Shown here piece after piece: positions 1 through 29,344 of a stretch of DNA of 64,000 nt. The position numbers and the translations under genes were made by a program. Each line of letters starts with the position of its first letter. Within the stretch, counting starts at the first letter, position 1. This DNA comes from Minisyncoccia bacterium (lineage in GTDB: Bacteria > Patescibacteriota > Minisyncoccia > Phycocordibacterales > UBA9973): assembly GCA_044228545.1 (NCBI GenBank), contig JBGAUR010000001.1, forward strand, positions 450 through 64,449, read 5' to 3'. Under the pieces are notes generated by a model. The model did not search any database and was not told the origin of the DNA. It saw nothing but the letters and a program-made list of their open reading frames with translations.

Positions 1-514
1 TGTAAACAACTTGGAGCATTCCTGAACCCAGGATGTGGCCCGCGTCTTTGAATGAAAATTGAAAACCGTGATCCACATTCAGAACTTGATGGTAATCTAG
101 TGTTTCCCAGAGGTCTAAAGCTTTTCTAGTATTTTCTTCTGTATATATTTCATCGAGACCGTGATCTTTATCCCGAGAAAGTAAGTGATTAGTATCGGCA
201 AGCATTACTTCGGCAATATCTTTTGTAGGAATAGTGGAGATGATCCTACCCTTGAAACCTTCACTTATTATCTTTGGTATCCTACCTATGTGATCGATAT
301 GCCCATGGGTTATAAAAAGTATATCTATTTCAGATACTGGGTAGTTGAAAGGGTCCCAGTTTACACTTTCTGCAAGTTGCTCACCTTGGATCAAACCACA
401 ATCTATTAAAAATTTTTTACCATTGCCTTCGATTAAGAAATTTGCACCAGTCACAGTCGCAGTCCCAGAACAAAAGGTCACTTTCAGATTCTTGTCATTT
501 GCCATATGTGTCAT
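1..514 (-). CDS. MBL-fold metallo-hydrolase (metallo-beta-lactamase superfamily), N-terminal part; the gene continues beyond the window start
   Basis: The minus-strand frame is open from ATG (complement of 512-514) to position 1. The translation MTHMANDKNLKVTFCSGTATVTGANFLIEG...ITHGHIDHIGRIP carries the HxHxDH zinc-binding motif of the MBL fold. The track ORFs 185-409 and 345-563 are antisense to it. Confidence 0.55.
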   Translation of the reverse strand, partial: MTHMANDKNLKVTFCSGTATVTGANFLIEGNGKKFLIDCGLIQGEQLAESVNWDPFNYPVSEIDILFITHGHIDHIGRIPKIISEGFKGRIISTIPTKDIAEVMLADTNHLLSRDKDHGLDEIYTEENTRKALDLWETLDYHQVLNVDHGFQFSFKDAGHILGSGMLQVVY

Positions 515-574
515 ATTATACCTTAAATATCAAAATTATCTAAAAAATAACCTTATTTTCTAGTAAAAACAAAA

Positions 575-844: not shown

Positions 845-1495
845 TTAAATTTCAAAATTTTTCAATTCTTCGATAATTTCTTTTACTGATTCATCATTTA
901 TATCTTCTGATTTAATATTTGAGTGAGAAAAAATATATTTTTCTATATCTCTACCGCAATTTACCAATCTATCACGTTCTTCTTCGTGCACACTTAGTTT
1001 GTGACCCTTGTATCTTTTACTTGCATCATTCATTCGTTCGTCATATGAAAGAATTCCGTGTGGACCAACTCGTCCATCCGCATAGTGAATCAATTTTTGA
1101 ATAAGATCGCCTTCCTTGCTATGCTTACACATAAAAGAAAATCTATTTTCTCCAGCCAAATATCTAACTTTCTCTGATAAACCAAGTTCTTCTATGATTT
1201 TAATTGTTGCTTCATGCTCATCTTCTCCATATTTATTAATAAATTCTTTTTTTACAATTCTTACATCTTCCACTTCTATATCTGAAAGTCCAAAGACTGA
1301 TTTAGTTTGGTCTAAATTAAATTTTATTACATTACCCATGTCATGTAGTAGACAAGTTGTGATGATTAATTTTTTATCCAGTTTTAAATCTAGAGAATCA
1401 CATACAATAGAAGCAACAGCTGCTACTCGCAACTGGTGCATTTGTAAATGTGGCATTATTTTATATTCTTTGTATATATCAGTAATTTTCCTCAT
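845..1495 (-). CDS. HD-domain phosphohydrolase
   Basis: HQLRVAAVASIVCDSL...LHDMGN matches the H...HD metal-binding signature of HD hydrolases. It is the last gene of the co-directional cluster. Confidence 0.6.
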   Translation of the reverse strand: MRKITDIYKEYKIMPHLQMHQLRVAAVASIVCDSLDLKLDKKLIITTCLLHDMGNVIKFNLDQTKSVFGLSDIEVEDVRIVKKEFINKYGEDEHEATIKIIEELGLSEKVRYLAGENRFSFMCKHSKEGDLIQKLIHYADGRVGPHGILSYDERMNDASKRYKGHKLSVHEEERDRLVNCGRDIEKYIFSHSNIKSEDINDESVKEIIEELKNFEI

Positions 1496-1499
1496 AAAA

Positions 1500-2039
1500 T
1501 TAAAATCTCATATCATTCCAATCAAGACCATATCTCTCACGAATTAATTTAGTTTCACCTTGTGATAACGCTTCATACTCAACTAAATCAAGTAATTTAA
1601 TAGCTTCACCAACGTGCTCTTCACTACTACCTTCTATCTCAAGATAAGCTGGCATTTTAGGATATTGATCAAGATCAAAAATCCAATCTTTATATGTAAA
1701 AGATACTCGGTCTTTTTCTTGATGAGCATAGTGAACCAACCCAATCGCTTCTAGAATTAGCTTAGCATTATTAAAATCAGAAACATCAATATTTACTTCC
1801 TTAGATTGTCTAGTATTTCCAACAAATGTTTCTAAAGATTTCCATGTTATTTCATTTTTTCCATCGGTAGTACTACGAACCCTTAAGTACCAAGGATGAC
1901 TACCTTTTAGAGCTTCTTCTGTACAATACCAATCAACCGTGAGTCTGGTATCTTTTACTCTTATAGCACCTAAATTCTCTAATTTAGCTAAAATTAAATC
2001 TTTATCAATCTCTAATACCTTTGTTTCAATCTCGTGCAT
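1500..2039 (-). CDS. CYTH-domain protein (triphosphate tunnel metalloenzyme / class IV adenylyl cyclase-like), paralog 3
   Basis: N-terminal EIETKVL, central YLRVR, and C-terminal YLEIEG acidic motif are typical of CYTH. There is a 4-nt gap to each neighbouring gene. Confidence 0.65.
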   Translation of the reverse strand: MHEIETKVLEIDKDLILAKLENLGAIRVKDTRLTVDWYCTEEALKGSHPWYLRVRSTTDGKNEITWKSLETFVGNTRQSKEVNIDVSDFNNAKLILEAIGLVHYAHQEKDRVSFTYKDWIFDLDQYPKMPAYLEIEGSSEEHVGEAIKLLDLVEYEALSQGETKLIRERYGLDWNDMRF

Positions 2040-2043
2040 AAAA

Positions 2044-2595
2044 TTAACTCATTCCATACTTCTCAAAAAGCATAATATCGTACTTTCCATCTATAATATG
2101 GTCATCTTTAGTAATACCTAAATCACCAAGAAAAGAAAAAAGTTCTTCTTGAATTTTAATCCGAGCTTCTGGGTCTGATGTTTCAACTATTTTCTCAACC
2201 TCAATAAATTCACCCAACCCTTCCACTAAATCAAGTACAATTTCCATATCATTCAAAGTGGTTTTTACTCTTTTCTTTTCAACTGTTGGAACCTGTTTAT
2301 ACCCAATTAATTTTATAACTTCAAGCATTTCATTGCCATCTGATATTTCAAATTCTTTTTCAATACAATCCTGTCTACTTGACTGTGGTATTTTTAGAGT
2401 AAATAGATGTGACTCATTTTGTTTACGTACTCTAAGTACCGGCACACCTAGTGGTGGAGGGAAAATTTCTTTTTCCGGTATAAATATATAATCAATCTGA
2501 TGTAATTCCTCACCGAACACACACCCTAGGGTTTGAAGTTTTTGTATTATCTCTTCTCTATTATTTAGCCTGGCTTTAATCTCCACTTCGTACAT
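2044..2595 (-). CDS. CYTH-domain protein, paralog 2
   Basis: N-terminal MYEVEIKARL, LRVRKQ, and C-terminal GEFIEVE. It shows the same architecture as the flanking paralogs. Confidence 0.65.
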   Translation of the reverse strand: MYEVEIKARLNNREEIIQKLQTLGCVFGEELHQIDYIFIPEKEIFPPPLGVPVLRVRKQNESHLFTLKIPQSSRQDCIEKEFEISDGNEMLEVIKLIGYKQVPTVEKKRVKTTLNDMEIVLDLVEGLGEFIEVEKIVETSDPEARIKIQEELFSFLGDLGITKDDHIIDGKYDIMLFEKYGMS

Positions 2596-2611
2596 GGTCT
2601 TAATATAACAT

Positions 2612-2633
2612 AAAATCCCCTTTCGGGGATTTT
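2612..2633 (-). terminator. Hairpin AAAATCCCC-TTTC-GGGGATTTT (GAAA tetraloop on the transcribed minus strand), 12 nt after the ndk stop
   Basis: Read directly. A 28-nt string including it (2608-2635) is identical to 16851-16878. Confidence 0.5.
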
Positions 2634-2644
2634 ATTAGATTTAA

Positions 2645-3229
2645 TTATTCATCAACACCAAAGCGTTTGTAATCCATAAGTTTTATATCACCAAACCAAT
2701 GTTTAATTTCATGTTCAGCTTCTTCTGGAGTCTCTGAACAGTGGACGATATTCATAACTGCGCGTTTTTCCATGTTTGCAAGCGCAGGACTGTCGATTGA
2801 GAAATCTCCACGGATTGTTCCCATTTCAGCTTTGTAAGGCATAGTATCACCTGCAACTTTACGAACGACATCAACAGCGTGAACTCCTTTTACAACCATT
2901 TTTACAAGTGGAGCTGAAGTCATATAATCTATAAGCCATTTACGTATTTCAGGGCCAATCTTAGCAGCTTCTGTTGTGCCAAAATCTTTCATAGCATCAT
3001 AACCATATTTCTCATAAGTAGTTAGTGTTTTATTTCCAAGACGTGTTATCCACTCTTCACTTTTTGGATAGTGATCATTAACTTTATCAAATTCTGGGAC
3101 AAACATTTCAAGTGCGACAATCTTAAGATCTCGTTGTTCAAAACGCTTGATAACTTCACCGATTAAGCCTTTTTTAACTCCATCTGGCTTCATCATGACA
3201 TATGTAACTTCTTCTTTTGGGTGTTTCAT
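2645..3229 (-). CDS. ndk: Nucleoside diphosphate kinase with an internal insertion of about 30 aa. The track start at 3271 is probably an over-extension; the ATG at 3229 gives MKHPKEEVTYVMMKPDG.
   Basis: YVMMKPDGVKKGLIGEVIKRFEQRDLKIVALEMF and the active-site region NIVHCSETPEEAEHEIKHWF match the NDK motifs N.IHGSDS..A..EI..WF. Confidence 0.85.
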   Translation of the reverse strand: MKHPKEEVTYVMMKPDGVKKGLIGEVIKRFEQRDLKIVALEMFVPEFDKVNDHYPKSEEWITRLGNKTLTTYEKYGYDAMKDFGTTEAAKIGPEIRKWLIDYMTSAPLVKMVVKGVHAVDVVRKVAGDTMPYKAEMGTIRGDFSIDSPALANMEKRAVMNIVHCSETPEEAEHEIKHWFGDIKLMDYKRFGVDE

Positions 3230-3302
3230 ATAAATAAAAAATCGCTTTCGCGGTTGTAATAATATACTCAAACTATAGCAAAAATCGGGGTATTTTGCAA
3301 TT

Positions 3303-3875
3303 TTACTTTTTTACCTGTTTTTCGAAAGTAAACACTGAATAGTCATGTGGGTTTACATCGTAATTATGCAAAACTTGTAGCGCTGAACACACAACATGGT
3401 CCTCCCATTTAAAACCAAGTTTATCTGAGATTTCTTTTATTTCTTCAATTGTATCCCCCTCCAACTCTATATATGGAGGTATTAACGGCCACTCATCTAT
3501 ATCACATTCTATATTGTCTAAAATATATCTTGTTCTTATTCTCTCCTCATATACTTTTGGAACTAATCCTATTTCTTCAAGAAGCTGGGATGTTTTGTCG
3601 AAATCTGAAACTTCGACTTCGATTTCTTTCATCCCTTGATCTTTTAGAGGATTATTTCCCACTCCTAATCTTTCTTTATAGCTAAGAGTTATTCTGTTCC
3701 CTTCATCTCTAAGTCTAACCCAAGCATTTCGTTCTTTTGAAAGTTTTAAATTGGGAAAATCGTAGGGTTTAAGTCTATAATCAAATCTACCTACAAGAAC
3801 GGCTCCTAGATTTTTTAAATCTTCTTCAATTTTATCTTTATTAATATTTAGAAATTTTACTTCTATTTCTTCCAT
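3303..3875 (-). CDS. CYTH-domain protein, paralog 1
   Basis: MEEIEVKFLNINKDKIEEDL, WVRLRDEG, EIEVEVSDF, and C-terminal YIELEGDT. The stop overlaps the upstream ATPase gene by 1 nt. Confidence 0.65.
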   Translation of the reverse strand: MEEIEVKFLNINKDKIEEDLKNLGAVLVGRFDYRLKPYDFPNLKLSKERNAWVRLRDEGNRITLSYKERLGVGNNPLKDQGMKEIEVEVSDFDKTSQLLEEIGLVPKVYEERIRTRYILDNIECDIDEWPLIPPYIELEGDTIEEIKEISDKLGFKWEDHVVCSALQVLHNYDVNPHDYSVFTFEKQVKK

Positions 3876-6610
3876 TATCCTTGTTGTCTATACTTTGACA
3901 TTATTTCCTCTTCTACTTCTGCACGCTCGCGACCAAATTTTAGATATGAAAGTTCTTTGATTTTTTCTACAATTTCCATATTGCCTTGTGGAGGCGGGAA
4001 TGTTCCCATATTAAAGGGTTTTGTTGGCTGACCTGCCACTAGCATCGATACATAAGCATTTCTATTCTCTATTTTCATTATATCCGCAGAGGTAAATATA
4101 GGTTTAAACTTACTCTCTAGGAATTGTGCATCTTCCGCTCCAACACGGAAAACTGTCATTGAGCCGACGTTACCAAAAACTGCATTCTTGATATTGTCCT
4201 CAAGTTGAGCGATGTATTGGTGGGCAACAGTTAGAGAAAGTCTATACTTACGAGCCTCTGACAAGATAGACTCAATTGAATCCGTAGTAACATTTTGGAA
4301 CTCGTCTATATATAGGAAGAAATCTTGCATCTTTTTTCCATACATATCTACACGTGAAAGTGCAGCCATCTGAATTTTGTTTACTATTAGAAGCCCGATA
4401 AGGTTAGCATTTATATCACCAAGGCGACCTTTTGAAAGGTTTACCAATAGAATCTTTTTATTGTCCATTATATCTCGGAAGTTAAATACAGATTTTTCCT
4501 GAAGAACAACTGGACGCATAATATCGTTGGAAATAAAGTTGTCGAATTTTGAAGTGATATATGGTACGAAGTTCGCAAGGGATTGATCCCCTGTTGTTTG
4601 TTCTGCTCCTTTCCAGAACTGCGTAATGATAGGATTTTTACAATGAGAAAGCTTCATGTCACGGAACTCTTTGTCGGCAAGCACTCTTCCAATTTCTAAA
4701 AGTGTTGAACCAGACTCTGGATGTTCCATAACAAGAAATGCTGAATTCTTGAAATATTGTTCAAACATTGGTCCTCCTGATGTCTTCATATCAAAAAGCT
4801 TGTTGAATATATTCATCAGCTCATTGACTACAAAAGTCTTCTGTTCTGGGTATTTAGGATCATATTCGAGCATGTTTAGACCCATAGGACGAGCAGTGTA
4901 AGCAGGATCAAAATATATAACGTCATCTATGCGTTCCTTTGGAATATAACTCAAAATATCTTGAATATCTGTTCCATGAGGGTCAATATAGCAAACACCG
5001 TGGCCTGCCTTAATATCCTGAGCTATCATATTCTTCATGATTGTCGTCTTACCTGTACCTGTCTGACCTATCACATATAAGTGTCGCATACGGTCTTCGT
5101 CTGCAAAGTGAATGGCTGTATCTTTACCTCTGTAACTGTTAACTCCGAGTATAACGCCTTGTTCCCCCATTTCGATAGGCGCAGGGGCAATACCGGCTTT
5201 TGCTTGCTTGAGTTGAGGAGATGAAGTGATACCGTGTGGGAAGTGGAAGACTGTTGCAAGTTCTTTAAGATTTAGTGGCATTGAATATTCATCGGAAAAG
5301 GTACGGTAAGAAAAATCATGAGTTAATTGGTTTAGATCTTTACCTTGTGGGTGGTTCCAATTGAAACCATTGCGATCAGACTCTGTAAATTGATTGAATG
5401 ATGACTCGATATCTGAAAGAATTTGTTTAGCTCTCAGACTACTCTCAGCTGAAGCAATCACCCGAATATTACAAGCCATTATAGTGCTCTTCATTTTTTC
5501 AGTAATATTCTCTACTGCTTTATCGTTAACCTTTTTCTCTTCTTTGTTTTTTGATTGTCCAAATACAAGCTCTTTGGCAATAGAGCCTAGGCCTTTAGTA
5601 AACTGCCTTGTCATACTTGAAGCTGTGCGCACTGACATCCCCTCTTTTACATCTCCGAGTATTATGTGGAACTTTCTGATAATGTCATCATCTTCTGGGC
5701 AAATAGTAAACTGAATTGCTGCTCCTTCTCCAGATTTTTTGAGCTTAGTGAAGACATTGAGAATAATATTTAGTGGATCGTGATCTATAGCATCATAAAG
5801 CTTTATCGGATAAACTTCGTGATGAGCAAGTGTTGCATAAGAAGCTACCACTGAGCCACTGTCAGTAAATATATTATAGTCATCTGGCGCTTCATTTATC
5901 TTTGCACTAGGGTGGACACCTAAAAGTTGTTTTTCAAAAAGATCTGCTTTGTGTGTTGGCACTGCAGTGTAGAAAACAAAGTGATCAGTATCTTCAGCTA
6001 ATGCAATCTCTAGTGTAAAATGGTTACGATTATAATTCTGCCTACCTTCACCTACTGAATGCATTCCGGCATAAAATTGCTCCATAGCAGAGAGTAACTC
6101 TTTTAAACCTTTTTTTTCTTTCTCATCATTTGTTGGATCAGGTAAAGTAATCTCAAATAACTTCATATCGAGCGATTTGAAGAGTGGAGTACTTTCTTTG
6201 AGTCCAGGGATTTTATGCCTACTATATAAATATTGAACTAGGAATCTATGAAAATCATCATCAAGGTGAGGATTGTTCATCTTAGCCACTATTGAAAGCG
6301 CTGTTGAGATGCCTTTATCTAATAGAATTCCTAACATCTCTTCCATCTTATTATCGTGCGATTCAGGGTGGAGTCTAAGCACCAAGTCATTCGCATCAAC
6401 ATCTTCCATGACAGCACTTTTATGCATTACTTCTTGTGGTTCATATTTCTTATACTCTTGGATAACATCATGAGCAAGATTTTCTTTTGAATAATCTTGT
6501 CCTTGATCTATGAGAGCTTTTTCTTTTTCAGCAATATGGGCACGCAAAAATTCAAGCTCCTCTTCCGGAGTCTTGAACTTTGGAGCATTGTTTAAATTAA
6601 AACCTTCCAT
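3875..6610 (-). CDS. Type IV coupling protein-like ATPase (VirD4/TraD/TrwB family, FtsK-HerA superfamily) with a roughly 500-aa N-terminal extension and no obvious transmembrane anchor. The track start at 6679 is TTG; the ATG at 6610 is preceded by TGATATAAT.
   Basis: The Walker A block HLYVIGQTGTGKTTIMKNMIAQDIKAGHGVCYIDPHGTD aligns with TrwB HLLVNGATGTGKSVL...VIVDPNGD. The Walker B and arginine-finger block FLYIDEFQNV...ARKYRLSLTVAHQYIAQLED aligns with TrwB LWLFIDELASL...GRKAGLRVVAGLQSTSQLDD. Confidence 0.6.
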   Translation of the reverse strand: MEGFNLNNAPKFKTPEEELEFLRAHIAEKEKALIDQGQDYSKENLAHDVIQEYKKYEPQEVMHKSAVMEDVDANDLVLRLHPESHDNKMEEMLGILLDKGISTALSIVAKMNNPHLDDDFHRFLVQYLYSRHKIPGLKESTPLFKSLDMKLFEITLPDPTNDEKEKKGLKELLSAMEQFYAGMHSVGEGRQNYNRNHFTLEIALAEDTDHFVFYTAVPTHKADLFEKQLLGVHPSAKINEAPDDYNIFTDSGSVVASYATLAHHEVYPIKLYDAIDHDPLNIILNVFTKLKKSGEGAAIQFTICPEDDDIIRKFHIILGDVKEGMSVRTASSMTRQFTKGLGSIAKELVFGQSKNKEEKKVNDKAVENITEKMKSTIMACNIRVIASAESSLRAKQILSDIESSFNQFTESDRNGFNWNHPQGKDLNQLTHDFSYRTFSDEYSMPLNLKELATVFHFPHGITSSPQLKQAKAGIAPAPIEMGEQGVILGVNSYRGKDTAIHFADEDRMRHLYVIGQTGTGKTTIMKNMIAQDIKAGHGVCYIDPHGTDIQDILSYIPKERIDDVIYFDPAYTARPMGLNMLEYDPKYPEQKTFVVNELMNIFNKLFDMKTSGGPMFEQYFKNSAFLVMEHPESGSTLLEIGRVLADKEFRDMKLSHCKNPIITQFWKGAEQTTGDQSLANFVPYITSKFDNFISNDIMRPVVLQEKSVFNFRDIMDNKKILLVNLSKGRLGDINANLIGLLIVNKIQMAALSRVDMYGKKMQDFFLYIDEFQNVTTDSIESILSEARKYRLSLTVAHQYIAQLEDNIKNAVFGNVGSMTVFRVGAEDAQFLESKFKPIFTSADIMKIENRNAYVSMLVAGQPTKPFNMGTFPPPQGNMEIVEKIKELSYLKFGRERAEVEEEIMSKYRQQG

Positions 6611-6617
6611 TAAAACT

Positions 6618-6626
6618 ATTATATCA
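6618..6626 (-). promoter_or_regulatory. Extended -10 (TGATATAAT on the minus strand) ending 7 nt before the ATPase ATG; leaderless-type arrangement
   Basis: Read directly on the reverse complement of 6611-6630. Confidence 0.35.
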
Positions 6627-6656
6627 TAAAGATTTTTATAAACTGATATAAAAAAA

Positions 6657-6673
6657 GCCGGAGTGCGTCCGGC
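6657..6673 (-). terminator. Hairpin GCCGGA-GTGCG-TCCGGC, followed on the minus strand by a T-run; terminates the 163-aa gene
   Basis: Read directly. An A-run at 6650-6656 sits on the plus strand. Confidence 0.45.
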
Positions 6674-6702
6674 TGGCAAGTTGGCAATCCTATTTGGTAG
6701 GA

Positions 6703-7194
6703 TTAAAACCTTTTTGCCATAAATTCTTTCGGGTTTTGGATGAATTCCAATAATGAGAGACCATGGAGTCCGGCTGCTTGGGACCAGTCATTAGATATCT
6801 CAAACATTGATTTACCATCTTTCCGGAATGTAGCTATTGCAATTTGTTTAAAAAGCACAGCCCCTTTCATCTCTGAAAGGAATTCCAGTTGACCCATTAT
6901 TGTTGGATTCTTGACCATGAAATCAACACGGCCGATTTTAAAGAAAGTTGAAACTTCGCCGGTATTCCTGGGAGAAAGCACAGACGTAAAATCCATACCA
7001 TTTCCGCCAAGTTTATTAAGCTGATCAATTTTGTTCCAGATGTTCTCAGAAACAACTTTTAAACCAGCTAAGCCGGGAATTTCAGCAGCCTCTTCACTGT
7101 TGTTTTCAACTAATGAAAAGCTGCATTCAAATTTACTGAATTTACCCAGGAAGAAATTCAAAACCTCTTCAAGGGAGAAGTACTCATATGTCAT
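6703..7194 (-). CDS. Hypothetical protein of 163 aa
   Basis: It is a long ORF with its own TTGACA-17-TTTAAT promoter and its own terminator. I recognise no family. Confidence 0.4.
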   Translation of the reverse strand: MTYEYFSLEEVLNFFLGKFSKFECSFSLVENNSEEAAEIPGLAGLKVVSENIWNKIDQLNKLGGNGMDFTSVLSPRNTGEVSTFFKIGRVDFMVKNPTIMGQLEFLSEMKGAVLFKQIAIATFRKDGKSMFEISNDWSQAAGLHGLSLLEFIQNPKEFMAKRF

Positions 7195-8078: not shown

Positions 8079-9767
8079 TTATTCAAACTCTTTTTTGTAT
8101 TCTTCAACATCCCATACCTTCTCCAAAGATTCTTGCGAATAAGAACTTATTATATTATTACCTGACTTATCACTTTTACGATTGAAGAGTCTAAAGGAGC
8201 TTGCCATAGTATGGCGTTTTTTGTGTCTCTCATAGAAGGACTCTCTAGGTAATGGAATTTTATATTTGCGGTAAAAAGAAAGCTCTTGCTCTGTAATTTT
8301 ATATCTTTTATTTGATAATTTAGATAGAATAACCTCGTTCACAATATCATCACCAACATCAAGAATAGAGTCAGGGAGCTCCTCTGCTTTGATTGTATGA
8401 TCAAATATTTGATCCTCTGTTTTATCTTCATATCTAAAACCATGCAAATTTATTTCATCCTTTGTAAGCGGATATAACTCTTGAGCTTCTGTGTCTAGAT
8501 AAGGGAAATAAGATAATTCGGTAGGTAAATAATCTCCGAAAACATATTTATTCCCTTTTTTATCAATATATGGCATGTCAGACATGTGCTTTTTTATTTC
8601 TTCAACTAACTTTAAATATTCTTCTTTTGTATATTGCTTATTCAAAATACAATATTCTGCATCTTTTAAACCATTACAACCAAAACAATTTTTACTTCTA
8701 TAAATTTGACTCACATATGTCACATCCTGACAGTTCCACGCTGAATAACTACCAATAATATTAGAAGAGAAGGCTGGGAGATCTGATTCATAAGCAAGCT
8801 CTGATCCTCCACCAGCATCAGTATCATAGGAATCTCTTGCTCCATCAGCATAGTTATCGAATCTACAATTTTCACTCGAAAGCATTAAAAAAGAATCTTT
8901 ACAGTTATGACAATTAGTCAAAAGGTCACCAGAACAGTCAACGCAATTAACCATCCTGACAGCTTTTCTGGGATGAGTATTTAAAATGGGTTCAAATTCT
9001 TTCTTAGCTCTTTCAACCCCAGAGTAAGTATGCAAAGCATATTCTTTCATCAGCTCTTCATATTTTTCTTTACCAACATCTTCATTTTTAAAAAAATATG
9101 ATTTTCCTCGAAGCCCTGTGCACATAAAACAGTGGTTACAATTTCGGCAATCATAACAGAAGGCAGAATCTGAACATGATCGTGAATCATACACATATCT
9201 ACATTGATAACAATGTTCAGTGTTTACAGTTTCGTAATTGCCTTCATCTTTCCCAAAGCTCGTATGCACATCTACTAAGTCCTTACTATTTACAACATAG
9301 AAAGAATACATAACATTCTCAAGCTTCCAAGCCTTTATCACTAAATAGCAATCTTTTCCCATTGCAAAGTCATTTGTATACATACAATTAGTACTCAGTA
9401 ATCCATCATCTGTATCCATTGCTGGTTTCGGAACAGTTTTTATTAAATCAACATATTGCTCAAAAAATGAACGGGAAAAATCATAGTCCCTTCCATAATC
9501 AAAAGCGTTCCATTGATCGGAATGCCATAATTTAGGAGTATATACGGTAATATCAGACTTAGGAGAATATAAAGAGATAACGGAATTCCCTGACAAACCA
9601 CATGTCGATTTATAATAATTAACATAGTTTCTCCAACTAAACCTTCTTTGTCTTCTACATTCTGGGCAAAACGTCGGCGGAGGAACTTTTATTTTTTCAT
9701 AAAAGGAGAAATCATCAACCTCTATATTAAAGGAGTTTTTACAATTCTGACAATTCCTAGTTTCCAT
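8079..9767 (-). CDS. Cysteine-rich protein of 562 aa, unknown family (paralog A)
   Basis: ATG at 9765-9767. An N-terminal zinc ribbon C-x2-C...FY...P-P-x2-CP-x-CRRQRRFSWRN is followed by a WHSDQWN..DYGRDYDFSRSFFEQ block, CxxCxxCxxC clusters and a CILNKQYTKEEY motif. It is paralogous to 42309-43955 and 60546-62231. Confidence 0.6.
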   Translation of the reverse strand: METRNCQNCKNSFNIEVDDFSFYEKIKVPPPTFCPECRRQRRFSWRNYVNYYKSTCGLSGNSVISLYSPKSDITVYTPKLWHSDQWNAFDYGRDYDFSRSFFEQYVDLIKTVPKPAMDTDDGLLSTNCMYTNDFAMGKDCYLVIKAWKLENVMYSFYVVNSKDLVDVHTSFGKDEGNYETVNTEHCYQCRYVYDSRSCSDSAFCYDCRNCNHCFMCTGLRGKSYFFKNEDVGKEKYEELMKEYALHTYSGVERAKKEFEPILNTHPRKAVRMVNCVDCSGDLLTNCHNCKDSFLMLSSENCRFDNYADGARDSYDTDAGGGSELAYESDLPAFSSNIIGSYSAWNCQDVTYVSQIYRSKNCFGCNGLKDAEYCILNKQYTKEEYLKLVEEIKKHMSDMPYIDKKGNKYVFGDYLPTELSYFPYLDTEAQELYPLTKDEINLHGFRYEDKTEDQIFDHTIKAEELPDSILDVGDDIVNEVILSKLSNKRYKITEQELSFYRKYKIPLPRESFYERHKKRHTMASSFRLFNRKSDKSGNNIISSYSQESLEKVWDVEEYKKEFE

Positions 9768-9771
9768 AAAT

Positions 9772-10368
9772 TTAATCTATTTTGACTTTTATAATTCCAG
9801 TCAAGTTCTCACTTGATAAATAACCACACCATTTTTCTAAATCTGGAATATCTATTTTTATTGGTATTTCTGGCTTAGTAAATATTACTATATTTTTATA
9901 GCTTTTCTTTATTACTTCTTCTTTTGCTACACAATTATCTATGTGGCCAGAAAATATTATCTTATTTAAGCCCAAACAGGAATCAAAAACTTGTTTACTG
10001 AATGCTTCAATATTTTTTACAAGAACGACTCTATCTTTTATATCTTCCAAATTTTTTACAGCATTAATAAAAAGATCTTCATTGCCACTATCTAAAATTA
10101 TTACCTGGCTATCTCGATGATTCTCTAAATCTTCAGTTGAATTAACAAAGGCTAAGGTTGTATGTTTATTACCTATCTGTTCTAAAAAGTTATCTTTAGC
10201 CATAGGAAAGGCTGTAAAAAATAATATTTTTGAACCAGATAAAAATAAATCTTTGATGAGGGTAATAGTAAAATGAGAACCTCCAGATTTTTCTCCATAT
10301 ATAACTAAATAAGGTAAATCTTTTTCTTGTATTTTATATTCATTACCATTAAGTAGTACCTGGTTCAT
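9772..10368 (-). CDS. Hypothetical protein of 198 aa
   Basis: It is a long ORF tightly packed between pyrH-like and the Cys-rich gene. I recognise no family. Confidence 0.4.
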   Translation of the reverse strand: MNQVLLNGNEYKIQEKDLPYLVIYGEKSGGSHFTITLIKDLFLSGSKILFFTAFPMAKDNFLEQIGNKHTTLAFVNSTEDLENHRDSQVIILDSGNEDLFINAVKNLEDIKDRVVLVKNIEAFSKQVFDSCLGLNKIIFSGHIDNCVAKEEVIKKSYKNIVIFTKPEIPIKIDIPDLEKWCGYLSSENLTGIIKVKID

Positions 10369-10372
10369 ATAT

Positions 10373-11059
10373 TTATTTTATAACAGTTCCAATAAAGTCT
10401 TCACTATTGAGATATTTTTTAAGATTCTCTATATTTTTTCCGTTTAAGATTGAGACTTCAAGACCAAGCTCTTCGGCTTTTGCTGCAGCTACTGGATCAA
10501 AAGGAGCATTGAGTCCTGGATTCCACTCTGTTGGCAATATTGCTCGGAAATCTGCCCAAGAGCTTTGTTTTATAATCTCGGCATCTGGGAACTTTTTCGG
10601 GTCCTTATTATAAGCATAATCAATATTTGAAAGGTTTATTACCTTTTTTGCTCCTACGCTACCTGCTGCATGGACTGCTGCAAGGTCGCTACTATTACCT
10701 GGCTTCCAGCCTGCTCCTATAAGCACTGGTTTATCTGTACTGGGAATACTATCTGGATCCATGATTATAGAGCTATGAGCAATATTACCAAATCCAGTTC
10801 TTATAAGCTCTGCGTTCATACGTGTAGCTGCGATACCAATCCAATCGAGATCATCATGACTAGGAGTCACTATCTCCTTTGATGCAGCTATATAAGTACG
10901 GGCAGTGTGTCCCCCACCTGTAATAATTACAAATTTAAAACCTTTTTCTACGTATTGATTTATAGTTTCTATAAATTGTTTTATAAAAATAGTATCAATA
11001 TCATTTGGCACGATAAGCGAACCACCGAGAGATATTACGATGTGCTTATCAGTTTCCAT
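10373..11059 (-). CDS. pyrH: Amino-acid-kinase-fold protein, probably archaeal-type UMP kinase
   Basis: VISLGGSLIVPNDIDTIFIKQF, FVIITGGGHTARTYI, YNKDPKKFPDAE, and the C-terminal GTVIK parallel archaeal PyrH (IGGSV..P..IDFIK, VVGGG..AR.YI, DPKKDP, GTTIEP). Confidence 0.6.
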   Translation of the reverse strand: METDKHIVISLGGSLIVPNDIDTIFIKQFIETINQYVEKGFKFVIITGGGHTARTYIAASKEIVTPSHDDLDWIGIAATRMNAELIRTGFGNIAHSSIIMDPDSIPSTDKPVLIGAGWKPGNSSDLAAVHAAGSVGAKKVINLSNIDYAYNKDPKKFPDAEIIKQSSWADFRAILPTEWNPGLNAPFDPVAAAKAEELGLEVSILNGKNIENLKKYLNSEDFIGTVIK

Positions 11060-25032: not shown

Positions 25033-26616
25033 CTATATCTCTATTTGTTTAGGCTTAGGGTTATTGTTTTCACTATTATCCTGAGCACTGCTACAACCTG
25101 GATCACCATCTTTACCACCAAAATCAATCTTTCCATCCCCATCGTTATCAATTAAATCACTACATTGAGGAAGACTATTCGCTTCATTATTATCATTTGG
25201 ATCATAACTTGTATCATTACCAGCATCACCTTCAGTATGACAACCTGGATCAGCTATGTCTATTAAACTATCAGAATCATTATCTGTGCCATCACTACAT
25301 TGTGGATCACCTCCACCACCTGCTGCTTCAAAACATGCAGCTGTTGACCCTCCACCTGATCCTTGGCAAGTCCATGTCCAAGGGCCACTAACTCCACCAG
25401 TTCCACCACCAGGATAGGTACCAGCAACACAATTGAAGTGGGTCGCTGCACACATACCATTTACAATAGTCTCATCCAATACAACCACTGTAGAATTTGC
25501 AGTTGCATTAGTTCCAAAGCCATCACATTGTACAGAGTAAGTTGTTGTAGAAGATAGACTTACATCGACACTTCCGTTTATATTACCGTTAGTATTAAAA
25601 CCAGAACCAGTACAAGAGTCTGCGTTTGTAGAAGACCAAGTCAAAGATGTAATTCCTCCACCATAAGACAATACACTGGGGTTTGCATACAATGTGGCTG
25701 TAGGAGTTTTAGGATTAGATGGAGAAACAGACACATTCACTTGCGACACATCATTAGGATATCCTGTCTTAGTACAGGTAATTGTATATATATGTGTTCC
25801 AGCAGATAGGCCAGATATTACCTCAGAACCACCTAGTGTAGACTTATTTCCACTCCATCCATTTGAGGCTACACAACTATCTGGTGAACCAGTTGTAACC
25901 CAAGAAAGAGTTGTTTGGTCATCAGGAAGAGTCATGGAGCGAGGATTAGCTGATAGTTGAACGGTCATGCCAGATTGTTGAGGAAGTACGGTTATAGTGA
26001 CCTGTGCTTGTGCAGAATTACCAGAACCATCGTCACAAACTACAGTATAAGTTGTTGTTGTTATTAGAGATACGTTATCAATTCCAGATATTGCTCCACC
26101 GGTAGAAAAATCACTACTATTACAAGAAGTTGCGCCGGTAGAAGACCAAGTTAAATTCGCTGATCCTCCTCCATAAGGTAAAGTATACGTATCGGAAGTT
26201 AGATTAGCTGTTACACCGTTTGCAGCAAGAACTTCTATCTGAACTTGGTCTGATGCGTCAGCGAATCCAGTTTTATGACAAGTAATTTCATAAGTATAAG
26301 TACCTATAGAATATAGATCAGTTATTGCTTCATTCCCACTATTTGGAGACTTAGTACCAGTCCACATGCCGTTTGTTGTAGCGTCACAACTATCTGGTGA
26401 ACCAGTTGTAACCCAAGAAAGGGTTGTAGTACTGTTAGGTTGAGTTATTGGTGTTGTTCCAGATAGATCAACTGTTATTGCTGAATTAACAACTTGGTAA
26501 GGTTCATCGTGGTCAATTAATATCCAAGTAGCACTGACTGGTTTTGACACTGAAAACAATAGAACAAACATTAATCCTAGGAGTGCAAATTTATATTTAT
26601 TTAATATTTTTTTCAT
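25033..26616 (-). CDS. Secreted protein with a signal peptide, four Ig-like repeats and an acidic C-terminal C-x-DG-x-DND-x-D calcium-binding-like module
   Basis: N-terminal MKKILNKYKFALLGLMFVLLFSVSKPVSA. The repeats are TTLSWVTTGSPDSC...TYTYEITCHKTG and ANLTWSSTGATSC...TTYTVVCDDG, each present twice. The C-terminus is CSDGTDNDSDSLIDIADPGC...CSDLIDNDGDGKIDFGGKDGDPGC. Confidence 0.55.
   Translation of the reverse strand: MKKILNKYKFALLGLMFVLLFSVSKPVSATWILIDHDEPYQVVNSAITVDLSGTTPITQPNSTTTLSWVTTGSPDSCDATTNGMWTGTKSPNSGNEAITDLYSIGTYTYEITCHKTGFADASDQVQIEVLAANGVTANLTSDTYTLPYGGGSANLTWSSTGATSCNSSDFSTGGAISGIDNVSLITTTTYTVVCDDGSGNSAQAQVTITVLPQQSGMTVQLSANPRSMTLPDDQTTLSWVTTGSPDSCVASNGWSGNKSTLGGSEVISGLSAGTHIYTITCTKTGYPNDVSQVNVSVSPSNPKTPTATLYANPSVLSYGGGITSLTWSSTNADSCTGSGFNTNGNINGSVDVSLSSTTTYSVQCDGFGTNATANSTVVVLDETIVNGMCAATHFNCVAGTYPGGGTGGVSGPWTWTCQGSGGGSTAACFEAAGGGGDPQCSDGTDNDSDSLIDIADPGCHTEGDAGNDTSYDPNDNNEANSLPQCSDLIDNDGDGKIDFGGKDGDPGCSSAQDNSENNNPKPKQIEI
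25873..26421 (-). repeat. Intragenic tandem duplication with a period of about 513 bp (171 aa)
   Basis: The 36-mer ACAACTATCTGGTGAACCAGTTGTAACCCAAGAAAG occurs at 25873 and again at 26386. Confidence 0.5.
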
Positions 26617-26634: not shown

Positions 26635-28047
26635 TTAATTAGGCGCACTATCACCACAACCAACTATTCCTGGCTGACCACCAGAACTATAACAACCCCT
26701 ATAGATAAATGTTCCCCCACAACTACCGATATAAGCAGCTGGGTTATTTTCTGCATATATATCTCCGATTCCACCACAATAACTAGGCATTACATCACCC
26801 CTAGGATCTCCAGGTACAACCAATAAGTGTGTATCTTCATCTATACAAGTTTCATTTGGATCACAAGGTACTTTGTTGTGCACCAGGAATCCATCAGCGT
26901 AGTATGTTCTATCACCAGACAATACAAAGTTATATAGCGGTGTAGTCTCAGGAACATTCTTGCTTTCAATAGAGTTAATAACCTCATTGCCAGATTCTTT
27001 AATAAGAGTATCGCCAACTTCAAGCTTGGTTACACTTATACCAATATGCTCTTGTCTAGTTTTTTCAGGATTTAGTGATTTCCAACCTTGCGTTGTCTTG
27101 AATGGATGTTCTTCGGTAACAAACAGACGCCCTTTGTTAAATCCATATATCTTGCCATCTGATTTTAGTGGACGATGATATGCTAAAACTTCATTATTAG
27201 ACTTTTCTCCTTTTACTACATCCCCAATCTTAACATCTTGAATATTTTTTATTGAACCATCAGCCATTGTTACTTTTGTATCGGAGATAAAACATACGTG
27301 GTACGCATTTGGACCACCAGTAGGTGGAGTACCTGTGGCTCCACAGATATTTCCCCCAGCCATACTTGTAGGACTATTTGAGTGTACGTGACCTTCATAA
27401 AAACCTGCAGTTCCTTCTATTTCACAACCAGTACCATTACATGCTTGACCATTATAATAACTAGTTGACTGGTTTGCTGGGATAGTAAACACAACGATTC
27501 TTGGATCAAGAGGGAGTGGACCGTATTGAGTGGTACCTGTTAATTGAGCGTTAACTGTTATCGCTGGGTGATTAGCTGGTCCAACATAATTTATCTTACC
27601 CCATCGGAAATTACCGGAGAAATATAATGTAGCTATACATGGGGATATTCCAGTATCAACACCAGTTAAATAATTAGCAAAATAGTTTCCAGTTAATGTT
27701 GGTGATTGAAATGGAGTAGAAGCTGGGGGTCCAAAAGGGAATGTCTCATTAAATCCAATATAAGTAGCAGGTATTATTGATACAGGGGTCCCACCATTGT
27801 TGCCCACAGTAAGAGAAACCTGCTCAGTATCGCAGTTGTTAGAAGTTATTTGGCCCTTCGCTAAAAATGTTGTAGCTGTGGTAGTGAAAGGACCAGCAGG
27901 ATCTAGATAAGCAAGTGTTGTTATATTTCCACTTGGTTGACAATTGTATACGTAAGTTGCAGCATCAGCATTTGAATAACTAAAAGCTAATAAAAGAAAT
28001 ACAGATGCTAGTGTTATATATTTAATGTTTTTTAGAAGTTTTTTCAT
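26635..28047 (-). CDS. Secreted protein with a Hint (hedgehog/intein-like, BIL-type) autoprocessing domain and a 79-aa Cys-rich C-terminal peptide. The track start at 28071 is GTG; the ATG at 28047 gives a signal peptide.
   Basis: The Hint domain spans aa 260-399, from CFISDTKVTMADGSIKNIQDVKIGDVV (Cys codon 27292-27294) to FLVHN (26875-26880), followed by KVPCDPNETC...CGGIGDIY...SCGGTFIYRGCYSSGGQPGIVGCGDSAPN. Confidence 0.6.
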   Translation of the reverse strand: MKKLLKNIKYITLASVFLLLAFSYSNADAATYVYNCQPSGNITTLAYLDPAGPFTTTATTFLAKGQITSNNCDTEQVSLTVGNNGGTPVSIIPATYIGFNETFPFGPPASTPFQSPTLTGNYFANYLTGVDTGISPCIATLYFSGNFRWGKINYVGPANHPAITVNAQLTGTTQYGPLPLDPRIVVFTIPANQSTSYYNGQACNGTGCEIEGTAGFYEGHVHSNSPTSMAGGNICGATGTPPTGGPNAYHVCFISDTKVTMADGSIKNIQDVKIGDVVKGEKSNNEVLAYHRPLKSDGKIYGFNKGRLFVTEEHPFKTTQGWKSLNPEKTRQEHIGISVTKLEVGDTLIKESGNEVINSIESKNVPETTPLYNFVLSGDRTYYADGFLVHNKVPCDPNETCIDEDTHLLVVPGDPRGDVMPSYCGGIGDIYAENNPAAYIGSCGGTFIYRGCYSSGGQPGIVGCGDSAPN

Positions 28048-28057
28048 AAGATTATAA

Positions 28058-29344
28058 TTACATATTAACACTATTAATTTTTTTTCTCCTATTCATATAT
28101 ATTCCAAAGGAAGCCACAATAACAAGTACAATTACTCCTAGAATAATAAATTTGCGATCTAAAGTAGGAGTGTAACTCTTAGGAACTTTTGCAGTTTTGA
28201 ATTTAAATTCTTTTTGATCTAAAACTTTACCACTTGGATCACTTAAAACAACCTTAACAAGGGGGTCTTCGCAAGTAGTTTTTACAGGATAAGATATTTT
28301 ATTTATGGGGCTTGATATATCTCGGCTTATTGTCTCTGTATTTTCTTCTATACATTGTCTACCTTTTTTATTAGTAATAGAAGTAGTGAGTGATACGTTA
28401 GAAGCCATACCAGCTGTCATACCCGAACCAAACCATATCAAAGAGAGTTCTGCAGTTTCACCTGTTCTATAATAATCTTTATCGAGAGAAATTTGCTGAA
28501 TGGTAGCACTTAGTCCTTTAATTATATAGTTAAGAGAAACATTGTTAGAAAAATTTACACCGTCAGATAAACTCAACTTTAAATTGTAAGGTTTAGATAT
28601 ATCACCTTTAGGTAGAGTGACTGAAAAAGTTTTTTTCTGACTCTTTTCAAAAATGATTGCTTCGTTTTCTTCAGTTGTCTGTGGAGCAGGTTCTCCATAT
28701 GAGCTAGAATATCGAGTATCGAAGAATGGACTAACCGTTAAAGATTCCATTGAATTATTTATTGCGGTACAAGTAAGACTAAGTGTTTGATCAGAGTTTA
28801 TCTCTACAGTTTTTGTAATTAGATATTTTGTGTCTTTATCTCCTAAAATCTGGACATAACATGACTCAGGTAGTATTTGTATACCCTTAGTAGAAGCGGT
28901 TAACTTTATCTTACCAACAACAACGTTTGCAAATGGAAAACCACTTTCGTTTTTACTATCTAAAAGAATTACAAAGTTACCATTTAGTCCAGACGGTGGA
29001 GTATAAACGATTTCTCTAGAAACAGAACTCTCTGGATGTAGTGTAAGAGCTTCATCATAGACTTTTTCATCAGCCAAATATGGATTCTTCTCATCTGAGA
29101 ATAATTTGATTCCATACTTTACCCCTGTCTGTAAACCTTGACCATTTGCTATTTTAAAGGATATTTTAAAAGTTTTTCCATCTTGAAATACTATTTTTGC
29201 ATTATTTATATCAACTGATGCAACCAGTACACCTTGAGCTTTTGGAAGTTCACTCTTAACTTCTGGAGCAGCACTAGATACTGTATAAAAAAACAAAGAG
29301 AAAAAAACAAAGAAACCAGCAAAGGAAGATTTATATAGATTCAT
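28058..29344 (-). CDS. Surface protein with an N-terminal signal peptide and a C-terminal TM anchor
   Basis: N-terminal MNLYKSSFAGFFVFFSLFFYTVSSA, and C-terminal FIILGVIVLVIVASFGIYMNRRKK. It is the first gene of the secreted-protein operon. Confidence 0.5.
   Translation of the reverse strand: MNLYKSSFAGFFVFFSLFFYTVSSAAPEVKSELPKAQGVLVASVDINNAKIVFQDGKTFKISFKIANGQGLQTGVKYGIKLFSDEKNPYLADEKVYDEALTLHPESSVSREIVYTPPSGLNGNFVILLDSKNESGFPFANVVVGKIKLTASTKGIQILPESCYVQILGDKDTKYLITKTVEINSDQTLSLTCTAINNSMESLTVSPFFDTRYSSSYGEPAPQTTEENEAIIFEKSQKKTFSVTLPKGDISKPYNLKLSLSDGVNFSNNVSLNYIIKGLSATIQQISLDKDYYRTGETAELSLIWFGSGMTAGMASNVSLTTSITNKKGRQCIEENTETISRDISSPINKISYPVKTTCEDPLVKVVLSDPSGKVLDQKEFKFKTAKVPKSYTPTLDRKFIILGVIVLVIVASFGIYMNRRKKINSVNM

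Follow-up and report, generated by a model that had tools for sequence, protein, structure and literature searches.

Do genes for a motor ATPase and for enzymes of nucleotide and triphosphate chemistry that lie side by side in a bacterial genome encode one dedicated machine, or have they been inherited together for other reasons? The question is raised by six co-directional minus-strand open reading frames (ORFs) in the region 845–6626 of a 64,000-nt stretch from the Minisyncoccia bacterium assembly GCA_044228545.1 (contig JBGAUR010000001.1). This whole stretch is called the window below, and all coordinates are positions within it. In reading order, the six ORFs encode a coupling-protein-like ATPase, a CYTH protein (CYTH1), a nucleoside diphosphate kinase (NDK), two further CYTH proteins (CYTH2 and CYTH3), and an HD phosphohydrolase (HD). 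A preliminary description of the locus had seen in them a nucleotide or second-messenger module coupled to the motor. We consider it rather probable that the six genes are instead the far end of a vertically inherited housekeeping string of a Nomurabacteria-like Paceibacteria lineage and not one dedicated machine. This string runs from ribosomal proteins through secY, adk, pyrH, map, the ATPase, a slot, NDK, a second slot, and HD or a small membrane protein to a small RNA and an RNase J-like gene.

ORF calling bore out the six minus-strand genes, and profile searches upheld their family assignments. CYTH1, CYTH2, and CYTH3 gave profile matches with E-values of 1.7e-13, 3.3e-19, and 7.5e-10, respectively; NDK was recognized at 2.6e-34 (PF00334, 118 bits against a cut-off of 27), and the HD domain at 8.5e-7, with PF01966 exceeding its Pfam cut-off. 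The assignment of the ATPase as similar to type IV coupling proteins (T4CPs) held as well, with scores above the Pfam cut-offs of TrwB_AAD_bind (PF10412), T4SS-DNA_transf (PF02534), TraG-D_C (PF12696), and DUF87 (C-terminal half).

We compared gene order in one genome per GTDB species, giving 80 loci with the ATPase 65–88% identical, using tblastn, hidden Markov models, and ORF clustering; counts of downstream genes are based on the 60 loci with at least 3 kb of downstream sequence. The ATPase homologues are annotated as Nomurabacteria, Paceibacteria, or Patescibacteria, and their loci share the backbone secY–adk–pyrH–map–ATPase–slot A–NDK–slot B–HD or 134-residue membrane protein–RNase J-like gene–LDcluster4. 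Upstream, map lies within 3 kb of the ATPase in 69 of 71 loci. Downstream, the ATPase is accompanied by NDK in 56 of the 60 loci and by an Adk-like kinase in three, so that 59 carry a nucleotide kinase; 55 have the RNase J-like gene. The preliminary description had asked whether the ATPase always travels with CYTH and ndk: the kinase indeed stays downstream almost without exception, whereas CYTH genes were found in 24 loci (one copy in 13, two in 8, and three in 3) and were absent from 36. All 42 CYTH ORFs are confined to the two slots on either side of NDK and share its strand: CYTH1-type genes directly follow the ATPase, and CYTH2- and CYTH3-type genes follow NDK. Other occupants of the slots are Nudix and HAD hydrolases, DUF559, 23S-rRNA-IVP, an IS200-like transposase, and many singletons. 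In the relatives, NDK occurs either as a long form 69–99% identical to that of the window or as a standard short form with about 30% identity, and CYTH genes are more common with the long type (odds ratio 3.75, P = 0.029, with no phylogenetic correction). The Adk-like kinase was seen at the NDK position in five loci (Pfam ADK, 1e-12); it is 358 residues long, carries additional regions at both termini and a Cys4 lid, and looks like a non-orthologous replacement in the same slot.

A wider scan, of metagenome contigs against a profile of distant ATPase members, delimited this conservation. ATPase orthologues of about 920 residues with 57–66% identity keep map upstream and NDK downstream (five loci), whereas at 51–54% identity (two loci) the synteny is lost, and it is not kept in most of the approximately 70 loci with ATPase paralogues of about 800 residues. 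Genes recurring beside the paralogues encode DnaX (13 loci), an XerC/D-type tyrosine recombinase (8), DivIC (8), GtrA, a PMT-type glycosyltransferase, and MurC, and these contexts are chromosomal, not those of mobile elements. In one locus, a long-type NDK lies 2.5 kb from an 807-residue paralogue. Loss of synteny in close relatives had been named beforehand as a finding that would speak against a conserved cluster; the order is kept over the 65–88% range of ATPase identity and lost at 51–54%. Because the synteny is lost in these orthologues and in the paralogues, we regard the ATPase–ndk adjacency as lineage-restricted and inherited.

The surroundings in the window fit this picture. Upstream lies the tail of the ribosomal-protein superoperon, rpsH–rplF–rplR–rpsE–rplO–secY–adk, followed by an archaeal-type UMP kinase gene, two unknown genes, map, and one genome-specific ORF; HD, in turn, is followed by a noncoding stretch, the RNase J-like beta-CASP gene, the LDcluster4 gene, rplT–rpmI–infC, truB, and smpB. 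The upstream order from rpsH to adk and on to map is that of the bacterial spc operon with its secY–adk–map tail. Two features set it apart: adk and map are separated by the archaeal-type pyrH and unknown genes, and where the operon usually continues with infA–rpmJ and the alpha operon, the string goes on to the ATPase, NDK, CYTH, and HD genes, the small RNA, and the RNase J-like gene. In GC content, the region matches its surroundings.

The same data can be read in favor of one functional module of ATPase, NDK, CYTH, and HD, for example one in which NDK and the triphosphatases take care, on the spot, of the NTP supply or the substrate of a translocating motor. The ATPase–kinase adjacency survives the exchange of NDK for the Adk-like kinase, CYTH1 always stands directly behind the ATPase and in the window overlaps it, and the long-type NDK reappears near one of the paralogues. 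We nevertheless consider such a module unlikely: most loci do without CYTH, the slots also carry unrelated cargo, and the synteny dissolves in more distant orthologues and in the paralogues; moreover, the ATPase and NDK appear to have separate conserved promoters, and the string holds map, secY, and the RNase J-like gene, which are not plausible members of a module. As the block is embedded in a housekeeping string and its synteny is lost at 51–54% identity, inherited order explains the adjacency at least as well as coupling. The ATPase–ndk adjacency is a conserved gene order; functional coupling is possible and not required by the data.

Predicted transcription signals (Table 1) divide the cluster further. 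The preliminary description had given gaps of 0–50 nt between genes that all follow one extended −10 promoter. The spacing is as tight as described at the ATPase/CYTH1 junction, a 1-nt overlap of stop and start codons (TAATG), between NDK and CYTH2 (49 nt), and between CYTH2 and CYTH3 and between CYTH3 and HD (4 nt each, both reading TAATTTTATG), whereas the CYTH1–NDK gap measures 73 nt. The overlap of the ATPase stop and the CYTH1 start suggests that translation of CYTH1 is coupled to that of the ATPase. The promoter itself is well conserved. An exact TATAAT is found 6–8 nt before the ATPase ATG in 54 of 79 orthologous loci, any TAnnWT box at that spacing in 64, 34 of these being TG-extended, and the box is conserved even where it overlaps the map stop codon; the control genes rarely meet even the looser TAnnWT criterion (secY, 7 of 55; pyrH, 11 of 57). 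Within the window, the pattern TAWAAT-N7-ATG is not enriched (6 matches vs. 4 expected), so the support for the promoter comes solely from conservation across species. Since the box lies 7 nt before the ATG at a conserved spacing and no Shine–Dalgarno sequence is present, the ATPase mRNA is likely leaderless, starting from a conserved extended −10 promoter. Similar arrangements were observed elsewhere: among 66 adk genes of relatives, 22 have an exact TATAAT 6–8 nt before the start, and the RNase J-like gene has TATAAT about 9 nt before its ATG (window ~505–545, minus strand). Leaderless-type starts may be widespread in this lineage at genes that open a transcription unit. An alternative ATPase start, TTG at 6679, was rejected; the ATG at 6610 matches the length of the homologues.

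The conserved promoter does not appear to serve all six genes. Upstream of NDK, TTGCAAAA ... TGCTAnAAT is conserved in most relatives, and in the clade of the window the NDK leader is 36–45 nt long and contains a mini-hairpin followed by a U-run; the same element was found in two relatives and an analogous hairpin in two others. The mini-hairpin may act as an attenuator, possibly an NTP-sensing one. A further hairpin follows NDK, and an extended −10-like box precedes CYTH2. Given these internal promoter-like boxes, the hairpin, and the conservation of the NDK promoter in relatives, the cluster is not predicted to form a single operon, and the region is best read as at least three predicted units: the ATPase with CYTH1, NDK, and CYTH2–CYTH3–HD.

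Whether any second-messenger chemistry is involved depends on the CYTH proteins. They are 25–36% identical to one another and are thus old paralogues. All three contain the motifs ExExK, RxR, and ExE, and the motifs are conserved within each orthogroup (42 orthologues). The only solved match for CYTH1 and CYTH3 is SaTTM (Saci_0718) of Sulfolobus, and CYTH2 matches three Pyrococcus CYTH proteins and then SaTTM. SaTTM is experimentally a triphosphatase that prefers inorganic triphosphate and forms no cyclic AMP (PMC8233210). Class IV adenylate cyclases are distinguished by an HF four residues before ExExK (HF(x4)ExExK), by a small residue in place of the first Arg of xRxR, and by the change of ExE to ExA (PMC8233210). 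CYTH1–3 share the CYTH fold with the class IV cyclase CyaB, whereas all three determinants are missing from them. The HF extension is lacking, since ExExK begins as early as residue 3 or 4 and none of the ORFs can be lengthened at its 5' end, and both arginines of xRxR and both glutamates of ExE are retained. We therefore do not expect them to act as cyclases, although CYTH2, as the only one of the three, scores above the cut-off of the NCBIfam cyaB model TIGR00318 (84.9 vs. 57.95), and the motifs predict that CYTH1–3 are triphosphatases, not class IV cyclases. "cyaB" annotations should not be taken to denote cyclases.

These features bear directly on the second-messenger reading, in which one or more CYTH cyclases would be combined with HD as a phosphodiesterase and with the ATPase as effector or sensor. 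The cyaB score of CYTH2 and weak HDOD-like matches of HD speak for it, yet in all three CYTH orthogroups the N-terminal position of ExExK leaves no room for HF, the Arg and the second Glu that cyclases replace are kept, the nearest solved relatives are SaTTM and the Pyrococcus proteins, and no cyclic-nucleotide-binding domain was seen among the Pfam-annotated neighbors. We regard this reading as hardly credible, and the part of the preliminary description that invoked it is not supported.

The three CYTH proteins may differ in their substrates. At the position of SaTTM Ala54, which corresponds to the stacking Trp53 of mouse thiamine triphosphatase (ThTPase), CYTH1 has Trp, CYTH3 Tyr or Phe, and CYTH2 Val. 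The aromatic residue typical of ThTPase (W/YxRxR) is a W in 10 of 17 CYTH1 orthologues and Y or F in 8 of 9 CYTH3 orthologues, and CYTH2 proteins have V, I, or A. We do not claim that CYTH1 or CYTH3 belongs to the thiamine triphosphatases, the aromatic residue being the sole ThTPase feature compared. Because the residue at this position differs, three different substrate preferences can be inferred: CYTH1 and CYTH3 probably act on organic triphosphates similar to NTPs or thiamine triphosphate, and CYTH2 probably acts on inorganic triphosphate. The similarity to SaTTM lies in the ExExK, RxR, and ExE motifs and in the size of about 180–190 residues; the difference, known from sequence, is that three divergent paralogues stand here side by side, two of them with an aromatic residue at the Ala54 position. 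A literature search for CYTH together with NDK in the Candidate Phyla Radiation found nothing relevant.

The NDK of the window is of an unusual type. It is colinear with the NDK of Pyrobaculum aerophilum (PDB 1XQI) over 178 residues (E 5.6e-50), and both insertions by which that protein differs from standard NDKs are common to the two. The catalytic His, in NIVHCS, aligns with those of 1XQI (NLVHAS) and 3VVT (NVIHAS). In contrast to the Pyrobaculum enzyme, this NDK is bacterial, and in relatives the same position has a short NDK (about 30%) or the Adk-like kinase. Its 90%-identity cluster has 141 members, and the protein is thus very conserved. The UMP kinase encoded by pyrH (10373–11059, minus strand) is also of archaeal type (TIGR02076, 166 bits, cut-off 158). 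Taken with the Pyrobaculum-type NDK and with CYTH proteins whose nearest structures are archaeal, this suggests a set of archaeal-like nucleotide enzymes in a bacterium.

HD belongs to a family of proteins of about 215 residues; where a member is named, its annotation is Paceibacteria or Patescibacteria. Its metal-binding residues H20, H51-D52, and D140 are invariant in 38 homologues, and PF13023 is found on some family members. The family profile gave weak matches to the YfbR-like nucleotidases 1XX7 (E 5e-4), HDDC2 (E 1e-3), and OxsA (E 0.14). With the YfbR, HDDC2, and OxsA nucleotidases, HD shares the HD metal-binding residues, whereas no fold match was significant. We predict HD to be a nucleotide or phosphoester hydrolase. 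A PADLOC search with the five small enzymes gave a single subthreshold match, of HD to a dGTPase (E 8e-4), and a PHROG search with them gave none.

The remaining question concerns the ATPase. Its 911 residues comprise a helical extension (about 1–140), DUF8128 (PF26449; about 140–460), and a C-terminal P-loop domain of the FtsK/HerA superfamily, with Walker A GQTGTGKT at 515, Walker B FLYIDE at 765, EARK at 785, and AHQ at 796. The PF26449 assignment is the precomputed annotation of the exact protein and of nearly all its homologues; the local Pfam scan did not return PF26449 and gave P-loop noise only for the N-terminal 533 residues. The protein is soluble, as the preliminary description had stated: no transmembrane helix was found, and the maximum 19-residue Kyte–Doolittle hydropathy reaches 1.39, compared with 2.71 in SecY, which served as control. 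It is 80–90% identical across many species, a conservation equal to or above that of SecY (74–88%) and better than that of map. The family is large, with 20,823 representatives at 50% clustering and E ≤ 1e-3, and its profile matches TrwB (2e-7) and DotL (1.7e-4). A PDB sequence search with the ATPase alone gave no matches, and the curated NCBIfam models of TraD/VirD4 stayed far below their cut-offs (best TIGR03743, 53 bits vs. 366); the VirB4 model TIGR00929 failed too, with 21.7 bits against a cut-off of 643 and a match spanning the P-loop only. A diverse-profile homologue search returned the same 62–100% clade, and the alignment used by AlphaFold was shallow. In Foldseek, the model of the ATPase matched TrwK first, over about 900 columns, with low template modeling (TM) scores (about 0.2) and a weak C-terminal half. 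In a separate ranking of structure matches, the next after the top one were EccE3 (8.7), HerA (7.8), the VirB4 C-domain alone (7.5), and TrwB (6.2).

On this combination of model and sequence matches, the ATPase looks like a VirB4-type two-domain soluble ATPase with a motor domain that is T4CP-like in sequence. It fails membership of both the VirB4 and the T4CP families, having no membrane anchor, no score above the cut-off of a curated model, and no neighbors from a type IV secretion system (T4SS). In sequence, the coupling proteins VirD4, TrwB, TraD, and DotL are nearest to the P-loop domain, and the all-helical stretch between Walker A and Walker B in the model is a further similarity. Unlike them, the ATPase has no N-terminal membrane anchor, has a soluble N-terminal region of 500 residues (DUF8128 with the helical extension), and is encoded in a housekeeping string conserved across species with no relaxase or T4SS genes nearby; VirB4/TrwK differ in that no VirB3/6/8 neighbors are found at the ATPase locus. 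The paralogues of about 800 residues lack the first ~140 residues, and in 18 loci this segment is a separate small ORF immediately upstream, which points to gene fusion or fission within the DUF8128 family. In these 18 metagenome loci, the separate helical ORF is about 133 residues long and lies 3–4 nt upstream of the paralogue. A literature search for PF26449/DUF8128 returned no paper mentioning DUF8128. According to a 2025 survey, 2,918 Patescibacteria genomes contain 5,713 T4CP homologues, only 148 of them near virB4, and its authors raise exaptation as a possibility (PMC12102498).

An ATPase of the HerA/VirD4 kind could belong to a degenerate mobile element, conjugative or phage-derived, or to a defense island. 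Distant full-length relatives of the ATPase (21–27% identity) occur in large Bacillus phages and in Firmicutes, Streptomyces, and archaeal plasmids; PHROG 5156 matches it at 4e-85, PADLOC gives mad8 and HerA matches on its P-loop domain, and IS200-like and DUF559 genes sit in the slots of some relatives. Against these hints stand the constant position and orientation in 80 species, the unremarkable GC content, flanks made up of ribosomal and translation genes, and the near-complete lack of PADLOC and PHROG matches among the other proteins of the cluster described above. No integrase, relaxase, or VirB genes are nearby: VirB- or relaxase-type families were not found in the Pfam annotation within 10 kb on either side of the ATPase, where three genes have no Pfam match, nor in ten further large ORFs of the window scanned with Pfam, six of which belong to housekeeping or unrelated families (among them RNase Y, the CCA-adding enzyme, PNPase, a ComM-like protein, and an M23 peptidase) and four of which had no match. 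The statement that this is not a standard T4SS locus is confirmed, and we consider an origin as a mobile element or defense island very improbable.

The ATPase may also be an FtsK-like DNA translocase for chromosome maintenance, unrelated to secretion and with neighbors that are merely housekeeping genes. Its superfamily, solubility, extreme conservation, and place in a housekeeping string would all suit such a role, as would the dnaX, XerC/D-type recombinase, and DivIC genes beside its paralogues. However, no FtsK gamma or DNA-binding domain was recognized in it, and the neighbor associations are few and come perhaps from few related lineages. In addition, Ca. Southlakia epibionticum can dispense with its t4cp homologue (PMC12102498), a protein that may or may not belong to DUF8128. 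We hold this role to be doubtful, with a modest chance of being right.

We return to the reading that we prefer, a housekeeping string inherited as such, and to how it would work. Three transcription units would operate: one for the ATPase, driven by its leaderless-type extended −10 promoter and including CYTH1 through translational coupling; a second for NDK with a separate promoter; and a third for CYTH2–CYTH3–HD. Adk and PyrH would turn salvaged nucleoside monophosphates (NMPs) into diphosphates, from which the long archaeal-type NDK would make triphosphates. The CYTH proteins would hydrolyze the gamma-phosphate of tripolyphosphate or organic triphosphates and HD would be a further nucleotide phosphohydrolase; together with the Nudix and HAD hydrolases of relatives they would trim triphosphates and other phosphorylated by-products, and RNase J encoded downstream would supply 5'-NMPs. 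The enzymes could thus form a set that maintains nucleotide and triphosphate pools in a cell that presumably depends on nucleotide salvage. The nucleotide theme of the preliminary description stands in this form and even extends to adk, pyrH, Nudix, and HAD, whereas a dedicated module coupled to the motor is unproven. The ATPase is most likely an oligomeric NTP-driven motor of the VirB4/VirD4 lineage. The role that we favor for it is that of a secretion-type motor exapted for the chromosomal type IV-like envelope apparatus of Patescibacteria; our second choice would be DNA handling in chromosome maintenance, as suggested by dnaX, xerC/D, and divIC near the paralogues.

Several points weigh against this account. 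The overlap of CYTH1 with the ATPase and the kinase that is kept downstream even when an Adk-like enzyme takes the place of NDK could reflect real coupling. All promoter and terminator calls are predictions from sequence, and the substrate assignments of the CYTH proteins depend on three short motifs and a single paper. The HD model, with a predicted local distance difference test score (pLDDT) of 95, gave no significant Foldseek match, the best being an HDOD protein (E 0.027, TM 0.40). The AlphaFold model of the ATPase is good at residues 10–460 and poor in the P-loop half (mean pLDDT 66.6, predicted TM score 0.43), and the VirB4-like architecture therefore draws mainly on the N-terminal half.

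A bolder extension would tie a chromosomally fixed, exapted VirB4/VirD4-type motor to local NTP handling through the downstream kinase and the translationally coupled CYTH triphosphatase, as a hitherto undescribed, Patescibacteria-specific nucleotide-coupled translocation serving the acquisition of nucleic acids or nucleotides from the host; we consider this a long shot. More soberly, the locus is a lineage-specific variant of known parts, the most interesting of which are the orphan DUF8128 ATPase and its conserved leaderless-type promoter. It defines one orphan coupling-protein-like subfamily that is soluble, has an apparently VirB4-like N-domain, is conserved at least to the level of SecY, and is fixed with its own predicted promoter in a ribosomal-protein string; these properties make the ATPase a well-defined target for studying the role of motors in ultra-small symbionts. 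The neighboring enzymes, Adk, PyrH, NDK, up to three CYTH proteins, HD, Nudix, and HAD, outline how such cells may keep their NTP pools ordered after salvage.

Table 1. Positions of genes, predicted signals, and uncharacterized neighbors in the window
Feature	Position	Strand	Description	Basis
ATPase	3875–6610	−	ATG start, 911 aa; same length as identical and near-identical database proteins	
CYTH1	3303–3875	−	Tunnel metalloenzyme; EIEVK at residues 4–8, WVRLR, ELE	
NDK	2645–3229	−	Long type, 194 aa; start shared with annotated homologues	
CYTH2	2044–2595	−	Tunnel metalloenzyme; EVEIK at residues 3–7, VLRVR, EVE	
CYTH3	1500–2039	−	Tunnel metalloenzyme; EIETK at residues 3–7, YLRVR, EIE; starts 4 nt past CYTH2	
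HD phosphohydrolase	845–1495	−	216 aa; starts 4 nt past CYTH3	
Terminator-like hairpin	6656–6674	−	AGCCGGACGCACTCCGGCT then T-run; after u163, upstream of the ATPase promoter	Scan and sequence reading
Extended −10 box	6618–6626	−	TGATATAAT (TGnTATAAT); 7 nt before the ATPase ATG, no Shine–Dalgarno	
NDK promoter-like site	3272–3300	−	TTGCAA-17-TGcTATAGT	Scan
Mini-hairpin	3236–3252	−	CGCGAAAGCG then six U; NDK leader, directly before the ATG	
Hairpin after NDK	2610–2635	−	AUAAAAUCCCC-GAAA-GGGGAUUUUAU; weakly terminator-like	
Extended −10-like box	2602–2610	−	TGTTATATT-N6-ATG before CYTH2	Sequence reading only
Small RNA gene (structured)	572–759	−	Between HD and the RNase J-like gene; predicted transcript of ~150–190 nt	
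Small RNA promoter-like site	~764–791	−	TTGCAG-16-TATACT	Sequence
Small RNA intrinsic terminator	575–600	−		Sequence scan
u163	6703–7194	−	163-aa ORF, genome-specific, in 0 of 80 related loci; no Pfam or NCBIfam match	
Cysteine-rich protein	8079–9767	−	562 aa, paralogous copies in relatives; no Pfam or NCBIfam match	
198-aa protein	9772–10368	−	Encoded, like u163 and the cysteine-rich protein, in the interval from pyrH to the ATPase; no Pfam or NCBIfam match	
Hint/intein-like protein	26635–28071	−	478 aa, Hint/intein-like domain	

Farther away in the window, the gene for the Hint/intein-like protein is flanked by two large ORFs (25033–26616 and 28058–29344), both without a Pfam match.

Next to the cluster, HD and the RNase J-like gene are separated by 276 nt whose nucleotide sequence is better conserved than that of the protein genes. 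This stretch, which contains the predicted small RNA, is 70–85% identical in about 35 loci, with core blocks kept in the 66% clade. Rfam 15, searched at gathering and at permissive thresholds (E ≤ 10), has no family for the region downstream of HD. With a covariance model, 68 of the 83 syntenic loci each gave a single copy, always on the gene strand (102–187 bits), and the unrelated loci gave none; on the window, the minus strand scored 174 bits and the plus strand 29.6. In the consensus structure, 98.3% of cells are paired, compared with 35–50% when the partners are slid, and double-sided changes affect 12 pairs vs. 3–6 in controls, with none of 500 shuffles reaching the observed value; the alignment was fitted to the covariance model, which favors the structure. 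With that qualification, the covariation supports the predicted consensus structure. The closing stem comprises helices of 12 and 7 pairs, or about 25 bp if the loop between them is also paired, which seems to be the case in some clades, and the further parts are a conserved single strand of 17 nt, a small hairpin on the 3' side, and a variable apical stem. This conserved unannotated small RNA may be of independent interest, and its rod with a central bubble resembles 6S RNA, an analogy that we offer as a lead only.

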